NCBI GenBank assembly: GCA_964373805.1
Contig: CAYJWF010000002.1
Coordinates: forward strand, 13,861-77,860
DNA length: 64,000 nt
Direction: 5' to 3'
Source: an uncultured Planctomycetia bacterium
GTDB lineage: Bacteria > Omnitrophota > Gorgyraeia > 1-14-0-20-64-10
Every line of letters begins with the position of its first letter. Within the stretch, counting starts at the first letter, position 1. This document shows, one piece after another, positions 784 through 3,117 of this stretch. The position numbers were made by a program, and so were the translations under genes. The notes under the pieces were generated by a model. That model searched no databases. It saw only the letters and a program-made list of their open reading frames with translations, and was not told where the DNA came from.

Positions 784-1060
784 TTAGGCTGTTGCGGAGT
801 GATTTGTTAGCGCTACGTTAGCAGGGACCAGGGAACCAAAAACCAAGTCGTCAAGCCTCCGTCCCATCTCTCCCTGTGCATCCGGCAACAGGTGCCCGTA
901 GACGTTAAGGGTGGTGGCCACCGAAGCGTGGCCAAGCTGATTCTGAATGAATTTTACGTTCTCCCCCTGGGCGATCAATAGCGCAGAGAAGGTGTGCGCA
1001 GGTCGTGGAATCGGATCCGACGTAATCCCGCCATCGCACCGGAGAACTTGCGATAATCAC
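784..1060 (-). pseudogene. Tyrosine recombinase (phage integrase) C-terminal remnant, frameshifted and N-terminally truncated
   Basis: Frame 1 (784..978) encodes IAQGENVKFIQNQLGHASVATTLNVYGHL (integrase box II with catalytic Tyr); adjacent frame (975..~1040) encodes GLRRIRFHDLRTPS (HxLR box). The two are consecutive but in different frames; no N-terminal/core-binding domain present. Confidence 0.55.
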
Positions 1061-1086: not shown

Positions 1087-1776
1087 TTAAGCCGCCTTCT
1101 GGAAAGCGTGCTTGGTCCTTGTACCCAACGGAAATACCCTGAGGGAGACGTGGTATCCCAAAACCCACACGATCTTCTGAATGGTCGATAGGTTGCTGAA
1201 ATCCCCCTCCTCAATCTTGGAAATGTACTGCTGGGTTACACCGACTCTCTTTGCGAGCTGCCCCTGGTTCAGATGATGGTCGGCGCGGTATTTGACAATG
1301 AGGGAGGCAACCTTGGCCTTTTCCTCCTCCAACTCAAGCAGCTCCCGGAAGCGGGGGTCCTTGCTCTTCTCCCTGAAATGCTCGTCTACGCTCTTTAATC
1401 GGACTCTCATGGTCTTTCCCTCCGATGGCGATAATTTTGAGCTTAGATAAAGACGCCTACGGTCAGCCGCTAACTCGATCTCGTTCCTCGGCGCCTTTTG
1501 GGTCTTTTTCTTGAAAGCATTCGTAAAAATCACCTTGTCCCCATCGAAGAAGTACAGCACACGGAAATCCGAATCCCTCCCTGAGAACCGGAGCTCAAAA
1601 ATCCCACTTCCTAAACTCTTGGCGTGCGGCTCCATCAGCCTCGGGCCGAGGCTCTCCAAGATGGAGCGTTTGTAGGCGAACTTACGCTGAGCCACTTGGT
1701 CTATGCCGTCAATGAACCCCTCCACAGGGTAACGGCCCTGCTCGGTCCCAAAGTATGAGCAATGGTATGTGGTCAA
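1087..1776 (-). CDS. RelE/ParE-superfamily toxin (Gp49/HigB-like) fused in-frame to XRE-family HTH antitoxin (HigA-like)
   Basis: N-terminal 124 aa carry the Gp49-like motif GSGIFELRFSGRDSDFRVLYFF...VIFTNAFKKKTQKAPRNEIELA; C-terminal part (from internal Met at 1410, preceded by GGAGGG) has HTH LNQGQLAKRVGVTQQYISKIEEG. No stop codon separates toxin and antitoxin. Confidence 0.6.
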   Translation of the reverse strand: MTTYHCSYFGTEQGRYPVEGFIDGIDQVAQRKFAYKRSILESLGPRLMEPHAKSLGSGIFELRFSGRDSDFRVLYFFDGDKVIFTNAFKKKTQKAPRNEIELAADRRRLYLSSKLSPSEGKTMRVRLKSVDEHFREKSKDPRFRELLELEEEKAKVASLIVKYRADHHLNQGQLAKRVGVTQQYISKIEEGDFSNLSTIQKIVWVLGYHVSLRVFPLGTRTKHAFQKAA

Positions 1777-2131
1777 CCTTTTCTCATCCTCTTTTAAGTA
1801 TACAACCGAAATGTTGTAACTTCAAGGGTAAAATGCTCACCCTGTCAGCCGGATGGTATCGGTCGCATTGTCCTCTAGGTTCTCATAGCCCCGGAAGTAC
1901 CACAATTGCCCGCATTTGGCGGGGCGAGAGCTCCAAAATTACCGTCTCGCCGAAGTAATTCCCCACCTCTCTTTCTCGTCGGAAGCACTTACCAAATCGC
2001 TGTTTGGCAAAGGTAAGTACCTTACCCTCGCGGCATGCACCGTATGGGGAAAAGCATTTCCATTCGAACCAAAAGGGACCGAGGAGTCTCCAATTCAGTC
2101 CCGTTTTGGACGATTCCGACCTGATCCGAGC

Positions 2132-3006: not shown

Positions 3007-3117
3007 AGAAGCGAGAGCGGATACTAACACGATTCATGCAAGTTGATCCGTTCACCCTGAGCAAAGTCGAAGGGTGAACGGGATAGGACACAGAAGTTAA
3101 CACGTTTGTATTAGGCT

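Follow-up and report, generated by a model that had tools for sequence, protein, structure and literature searches.

The window, which is the whole 64,000-nucleotide stretch of DNA analyzed here, contains a single open reading frame (ORF) in which a Gp49/HigB-like toxin is followed by an XRE-type antitoxin. The features of the locus are listed in Table 1. It has been proposed by the sequence-only reading that a HigB/Gp49-HigA-like toxin-antitoxin module was fused into one ORF at this site. We confirmed this proposal by domain analysis, since both Pfam domains scored above their cut-offs and the intervening stop codon was absent. The strand, which was absent from that reading, is minus. In the toxin portion, the Gp49 family (PF05973) matched amino acids (aa) 21–107 over profile positions 2–89 of 90 (E = 3e-21; 75.7 bits against a cut-off of 23.9), and phrog_2523 likewise matched this portion (E = 1.6e-19). 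Both of the toxin motifs quoted earlier were also found, FELRFSGRDSDFRVLYFF at aa 60–77 and FKKKTQKAP at aa 88–96. HTH_3 (PF01381) matched aa 162–209 (E = 8.6e-9; 35.7 bits against a cut-off of 23). Among the NCBIfam models, the C-terminal half was nearest to the HipB/Y4mF and MqsA kinds of type II antitoxin, with scores below threshold. A Shine-Dalgarno-like GAGGA sequence (1791–1787) lies ahead of the TTG start codon. As had been read earlier, the antitoxin keeps its own ATG (1410–1408), which is now codon 123, and its own GGAGGG ribosome-binding site (1423–1418), both of which are intact.

Table 1. Features of the toxin-antitoxin locus, in window coordinates.
Feature	Positions	Strand	Details
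Predicted sigma-70-like promoter	1797..1825	minus	TTGAAG (1825–1820), 17-nt spacer, TATACT (1802–1797); consensus scan
Palindrome, candidate operator	1801..1818	minus	TACAAC-N6-GTTGTA; overlaps the −10 hexamer
Fused ORF, 229 aa	1776..1087	minus	TTG start at 1776; stop at 1089–1087
Toxin portion, Gp49/HigB-like, RelE superfamily	1426..1776	minus	Codons 1–117; Pfam PF05973 and Foldseek
Former toxin stop codon, now TCG (Ser118)	1423..1425	minus	TAG in L004, L005, L006, and L007, directly before GGAGG
New linker S-E-G-K-T	1411..1425	minus	Five codons; old stop codon plus old 12-nt intergenic spacer
GGAGGG, Shine-Dalgarno of the antitoxin	1418..1423	minus	7 nt 5′ of the ATG; now within the fused ORF
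Antitoxin portion, XRE-type HTH (HigA-like)	1087..1410	minus	Codons 123–229 plus stop; Pfam HTH_3
Perfect 11-bp inverted repeat, 6-nt loop	1046..1073		ACTTGCGATAA/TTATCGCAAGT; 14 nt past the stop codon

We then examined the region upstream of the toxin start in the window and in three related loci (L004, L002, and L003). The promoter arrangement recurs 5′ of the toxin gene in all three relatives, as judged by consensus match alone. As for the palindrome, the ACAA and GTTGTAT columns were invariant across the four upstream regions. The palindrome is listed as a candidate operator, and it would be the one expected for autorepression by an HTH antitoxin.

Loss of the toxin stop codon

The junction between the two parts was compared with those of related modules. 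Contig CAYJTC010000023.1 from a Planctomycetia MAG (L004) carries a cassette of equal length, which could be aligned with that of the window, promoter through antitoxin stop codon, without any gap. The two sequences showed 89.7% identity over 785 shared bases in blastn. At codon 118, L004 has TAG where the window has TCG, and the antitoxin of L004 is a separate ORF located at 913–1236 of L004. The TAGGAGG junction was also found in L005 and L006, which are two contigs of one relative, and in L007 from another; in these, the ATG follows after 12 or 13 nt. The spacer from TAG to ATG in L004 and L007 is 12 nt and in frame, and the Shine-Dalgarno sequence is kept as TAGGAGG(G/T) in all four contigs. 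The substituted base corresponds to window position 1424; on the minus strand the window reads C and the relatives A, and on the plus strand they read G and T, respectively.

Because TAG is present in L004, L005, L006, and L007, the comparison indicates that TAG is the ancestral state and that the TCG of the window is derived, through a coding-strand A-to-C change at 1424. Since the spacer in the L004/L007/window sub-lineage is 12 nt long and in frame, loss of this stop codon joins both ORFs via five residues. The sequence-only reading had offered two explanations for the fusion, and the first of them, that the toxin lost its stop, was thus supported by the TAG in the gapless L004 alignment and in three contigs of two further relatives. 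Comparison with orthologous higBA pairs likewise favored stop loss, as the close homologues all encode a separate toxin and antitoxin.

The bicistronic modules of L004, L005/L006, and L007 resemble that of the window in the predicted promoter and candidate operator, in the toxin (85–90% identity), and in the TAGGAGG junction design, in which the window has TCG for TAG. The L004 antitoxin (P0158) is ~95% identical to the window antitoxin. In contrast to the window, however, these modules keep the TAG stop codon, and their flanking DNA is unrelated. We consider it very likely that a single-base stop loss in a canonical toxin-first type II operon produced the 229-aa toxin-linker-antitoxin chain, and that it represents a near-neutral allele of a probably silenced module.

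A frameshift origin of the fusion was first inferred from a net +19-nt difference relative to L002 and L003 and from an ATGA in the window, which was taken as a relic stop. In L002 and L003 (~60–65% protein identity), toxin and antitoxin are two genes, and the stop of the first overlaps the start of the second by 4 nt, GTGA or ATGA. This frameshift origin was ruled out, because the closer L004, L005, L006, and L007, which were reached through the 90% cluster of the query and a genome-collection scan, showed that the in-frame 12-nt spacer predates the fusion.

The reliability of the junction sequence was evaluated using a second assembly. Logan contig L001 (run ERR4904390) was identical to the window over the whole cassette and encoded the same 229-aa ORF, indicating that the junction sequence was reproduced by a second assembler. 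Zero stop codons were found in the interval between the Gp49 and HTH_3 domains of this ORF in both assemblies. In 3163 shared bases, L001 and the window showed one mismatch, at window 3054 (A against G), far from the junction. This position lies in a non-coding stretch downstream of frr, and the difference indicates either a population polymorphism or another source sample. It could be argued that codon 118 is truly TAG and that the locus is an ordinary bicistronic higBA-like pair altered by a sequencing, assembly, or consensus artefact, given that the fused allele occurs in one genome only, that the contig is metagenome-derived and mixed strains can affect the consensus, and that both agreeing assemblies may stem from the same reads. 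However, the same base was obtained from two different assemblers, whose assemblies are not byte copies, as they differ at 3054. Furthermore, the change is a substitution outside repeats and homopolymers, where a consensus error is not likely. We therefore regard an artefact at base 1424, whether from a strain mixture or from the consensus, as very improbable.

Condition, predicted structure, and proposed behavior of the fused chain

In addition to the junction, the condition of the two parts was analyzed. Between the window and L004, the toxin codons showed 22 synonymous and 12 non-synonymous differences, and the antitoxin codons showed 16 and 5, respectively. Synonymous differences exceeded non-synonymous ones in both parts, indicating evolution under constraint; both genes have thus experienced purifying selection. 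In a 63-sequence alignment, all 24 family positions conserved at 90% or more were kept in the window toxin. The toxin was also aligned by HMMER with HigB-TAC of M. tuberculosis, for which the list of pocket residues was taken from PMC9098466. Eight of the nine mapped residues were kept: K58, E66, R68, R77, F93, K95, Q98, and K99 of HigB-TAC correspond to K53, E61, R63, R72, F88, K90, Q93, and K94 of the window toxin. The ninth, N73, aligns to D68, and D is also found in the unfused close relatives. Because the conserved residues are intact, the toxin domain seems to be without decay, which would mean that the stop loss was recent or harmless. Absence of decay is equally compatible with a functional fusion under selection.

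M. tuberculosis HigB1/HigB-TAC (Rv1955; 7AWK, 7NBU) was the best PDB sequence match to the window toxin (E = 2e-5). It is Gp49-like and is a ribosome-dependent mRNase (PMC9098466). The mycobacterial system has a SecB-like chaperone as its third component, whereas the window locus has no adjacent chaperone gene. Besides the change of N73 to D68, R117 of the tRNA-contacting helix in M. tuberculosis is not conserved in the window.

The fused protein was modeled by AlphaFold2 with the 63-sequence alignment. A single confident, compact model was obtained (pLDDT 92.6; pTM 0.88), and the mean pLDDT of the blocks spanning the linker was 82 at residues 111–120 and 89 at residues 121–130. In the toxin, strands were formed by aa 5–10, 52–56, 59–65, 70–78, and 81–89 and helices by aa 17–24, 27–46, and 97–115. 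The model thus has the RelE-like fold, namely an antiparallel sheet with flanking helices and, as Gp49-like members typically do, a long helix at the C-terminus. A short strand was also observed at aa 126–129, in the antitoxin N-terminus. In Foldseek, the best structural match of the toxin half was S. pneumoniae HigB (6af4_A; TM 0.79), and the TM against 7nbu_Y was 0.72; the antitoxin domain matched HipB- and HigA2-type HTH proteins.

S. pneumoniae HigBA (6AF3/6AF4; Foldseek E = 2e-6, TM 0.79–0.80) shares with the window the toxin-first order, the HTH antitoxin, and the long C-terminal toxin helix, and E66, R68, R73, F90, and K92 of its HigB have counterparts in the window. In that system, HigB and HigA contact each other through their N-terminal strands and helices (PMC7984235). 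However, the identity is ~22%, and S. pneumoniae HigB and HigA are two separate chains in a heterotetramer, whereas the pair in the window is covalently joined.

With the stop codon lost, a free toxin is no longer encoded at this locus. On this basis, we propose how the fused allele may behave. Ribosomes initiating at 1776 would produce the toxin-SEGKT-antitoxin chain, and free antitoxin would still be made from the retained Shine-Dalgarno sequence and internal ATG. The tethered antitoxin part would bind its own toxin in cis. By homology, the toxin is a predicted ribosome-dependent mRNA endonuclease. The C-terminal helix of the Gp49-like HigB of M. tuberculosis contacts the P-site tRNA and is required for activity (PMC9098466); thus, a 112-residue appendage on this helix should hinder entry into the ribosomal A-site. 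The toxin would be held permanently 1:1 with the antitoxin, and the module is probably silenced. The stop-loss mutation could then be tolerated by the cell because free toxin would never be exposed. We infer that the allele is tolerated, recent, and neutral or near-neutral, rather than an adapted single-chain system. Cis-neutralization and internal initiation are both put forward as proposals from the gene layout and the predicted fold.

Relatives and spread of the fused state

The distribution of the fusion was analyzed by profile search and cluster look-up. In the profile search, ~20 toxin clusters were 74–90% identical to the window toxin, and all of them were separate proteins of 111–119 aa with PF05973 only. 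The 90% cluster of the query itself included four free 107-aa antitoxins (P0155–P0158), which start at the same Met and begin with MRVRLKSVDEHF. It also included the toxins P0159 (117 aa) and P0160 (93 aa), which have the same endpoint, with tails ...SKLSP or ...SKASP. In the relatives, the antitoxin is a separate 107-aa gene located 12–13 nt past the toxin stop. Records of the identical fused protein are limited to one NCBI contig (109,401 bp) and Logan run ERR4904390. As far as these sequences show, the fusion is private to one genome, and no other sampled relative carries it. The fused state was also sought among diverged relatives as a sign of selection and was not found, and the close relatives were all bicistronic.

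A single-sequence word-index protein search gave two matches, as if the protein were an orphan; this status was rejected once the profile search and cluster look-up found its relatives. The plasmid collection contained distant bicistronic relatives alone (<35% identity). In PADLOC, no full-length match was obtained to systems such as NsnC; the matches were at the domain level, to generic HTH models and to the last 80 of the 293 positions in the NsnC profile, and no partner gene was apparent in the ORF lists.

Fused Gp49-HTH proteins were observed elsewhere, 7 among the best 150 cluster representatives and ~17 clusters in the profile search. They showed 24–35% identity to the query, being more distant from it than the unfused relatives, and the window fusion is accordingly unrelated to them by descent. 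All eight that were checked in the cluster table belonged to 90% clusters with one or two members. Their junctions were heterogeneous, either frameshifts from an A-rich KKTQKTP tract or direct end-to-start joins. The low identity, small clusters, and heterogeneous junctions indicate that fusions of the Gp49-HTH pair are recurrent and, as read from these proteins, polyphyletic. Membership of the window protein in a conserved fused clade was ruled out on the same three grounds. The second explanation of the sequence-only reading, a single-chain variant, was thus not borne out as an established fused lineage, since no relative shares the fusion and the fused proteins elsewhere are so distant in sequence.

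The fused architecture itself has been catalogued. Gerdes (mBio 2025, PMC11980606) listed 69 gp49-HTH fusions, the largest class of 195 fused RelE/ParE-superfamily modules, and the window fusion is another instance. That catalogue is purely bioinformatic and heterogeneous, whereas the fusion in the window was traced to one base and is private to one genome. It was argued in the same study that some of the fusions are functional. The window protein could likewise be a functional, selected single-chain toxin-antitoxin, in which the tethered antitoxin would be a domain for inhibition in cis or for sensing, as it is in fused defence toxin-antitoxins. The compact, confident AlphaFold model and the intact catalytic residues of the toxin would agree with this, and so would the ~17 fused Gp49+HTH clusters at the top of the profile search, including P0166 on 9 contigs and P0172 with 28 member sequences. 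However, the fused state was found in no close relative. The linker consists of nothing but the translated former spacer, and neither the internal ribosome-binding site nor the ATG has changed, such that no sign of post-fusion adaptation is apparent. The distance, the heterogeneous junctions, and the one- or two-member clusters of the other fused proteins also stand against it. We therefore consider a selected single-chain system unlikely.

CapRel-type fused defence proteins also carry toxin and antitoxin in one polypeptide, and the CapRel antitoxin inhibits in cis (PMC13423816, PMC11980606). CapRel differs from the window protein in its unrelated toxin fold and chemistry, its evolutionarily conserved fusion, and its demonstrated phage-sensing role, and the likeness is one of analogy only. 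There is a slim chance that the fused allele is functional, for example by freeing toxin on degradation of the antitoxin part, and that it shows a single-chain toxin-antitoxin at the very start of its emergence, as a viable cis-inhibited chimera beside free antitoxin. If so, a one-base stop loss in an in-frame higBA-like operon would be the route to conserved fused toxin-antitoxin defence proteins.

The finding has little weight alone, since the toxin-antitoxin family is very common and the point mutation is private. Its modest value is that of a clean, polarized example of how a fusion originates, in which a single identified base separates the derived state from the ancestral one and the rest is intact. 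A toxin-first module whose spacer is in frame needs one mutation to become a fusion, and this short distance helps to explain why Gp49-HTH is the commonest fusion class in the RelE/ParE superfamily. It also calls for caution in annotation, as multidomain toxin-antitoxin proteins in MAGs can be single-genome stop-loss alleles and not families.

Several other rearranged members of the family were observed. P0001 (ENA ERZ27297570, a 763-bp contig) is a 154-aa relative in which toxin residues 1–54 are joined in frame to the antitoxin from residue 7 onward, and its N-terminus is near-identical to the unfused toxin P0179. The deletion covers residues 55–128 (74 codons) between two short AAGAG repeats, with the junction known from the protein only. 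Lost with it are the core of the toxin, its stop codon and the spacer, as well as antitoxin residues 1–6. Judged from this protein, free toxin was lost a second time, independently, within the sub-lineage, and the antitoxin was kept. P0034, P0162, P0163, and P0166–P0169 are mutually diverged fused Gp49-HTH proteins of ~213–219 aa, low-GC-looking, with a common altered toxin C-terminus that follows from the A-rich KKTQKTP tract, e.g., ...KKHQSQKFKKQK..ILWKGL..M. It looks as if their final ~30 toxin codons are read in the antitoxin frame. P0166 was found on 9 contigs from three sources. Recurrent slippage at homopolymers or sequencing error could account for the altered C-terminus of this group, or the group may be a conserved clade that is frameshifted and fused. 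P0004 (217 aa) has two tandem Gp49-like toxin domains in one ORF and is thus a toxin-toxin fusion of the same family.

Genomic surroundings and mobility

Homology between the window and L004 is limited to the cassette at 1082–1864, from the promoter to just beyond the stop codon (~90% identity), and the flanks are unrelated. Since the homology stops at the cassette edges, the DNA around the module differs between the two genomes, which is what mobile toxin-antitoxin cassettes would be expected to show, and the whole promoter-toxin-antitoxin unit thus behaves as such a cassette. The inverted repeat at 1046–1073 is located exactly at the edge where L004 homology stops. Lacking a U-run, it is not a canonical terminator, and it received no terminator call in the scan; L004 shows no conservation of the corresponding region. 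The repeat may form a hairpin at the transcript end, or it may mark a cassette boundary or serve as a site of recombination.

A probable remnant of a tyrosine recombinase or integrase was also found beside the module. The minus-strand ORF at 784–978 would correspond to the C-terminal part of such an enzyme and reads ...GHASVATTLNVYGHL, matching PF00589 at positions 140–168 of 172 (E = 7e-4, sub-threshold). An out-of-frame piece, ...RFHDLR, lies just upstream (region 784–1040, minus strand), and the N-terminal two-thirds of the protein is absent. A tRNA-Lys gene at 617–689 adjoins the remnant. The recombinase remnant and the tRNA-Lys gene suggest a decayed integrated element that carries the toxin-antitoxin cassette.
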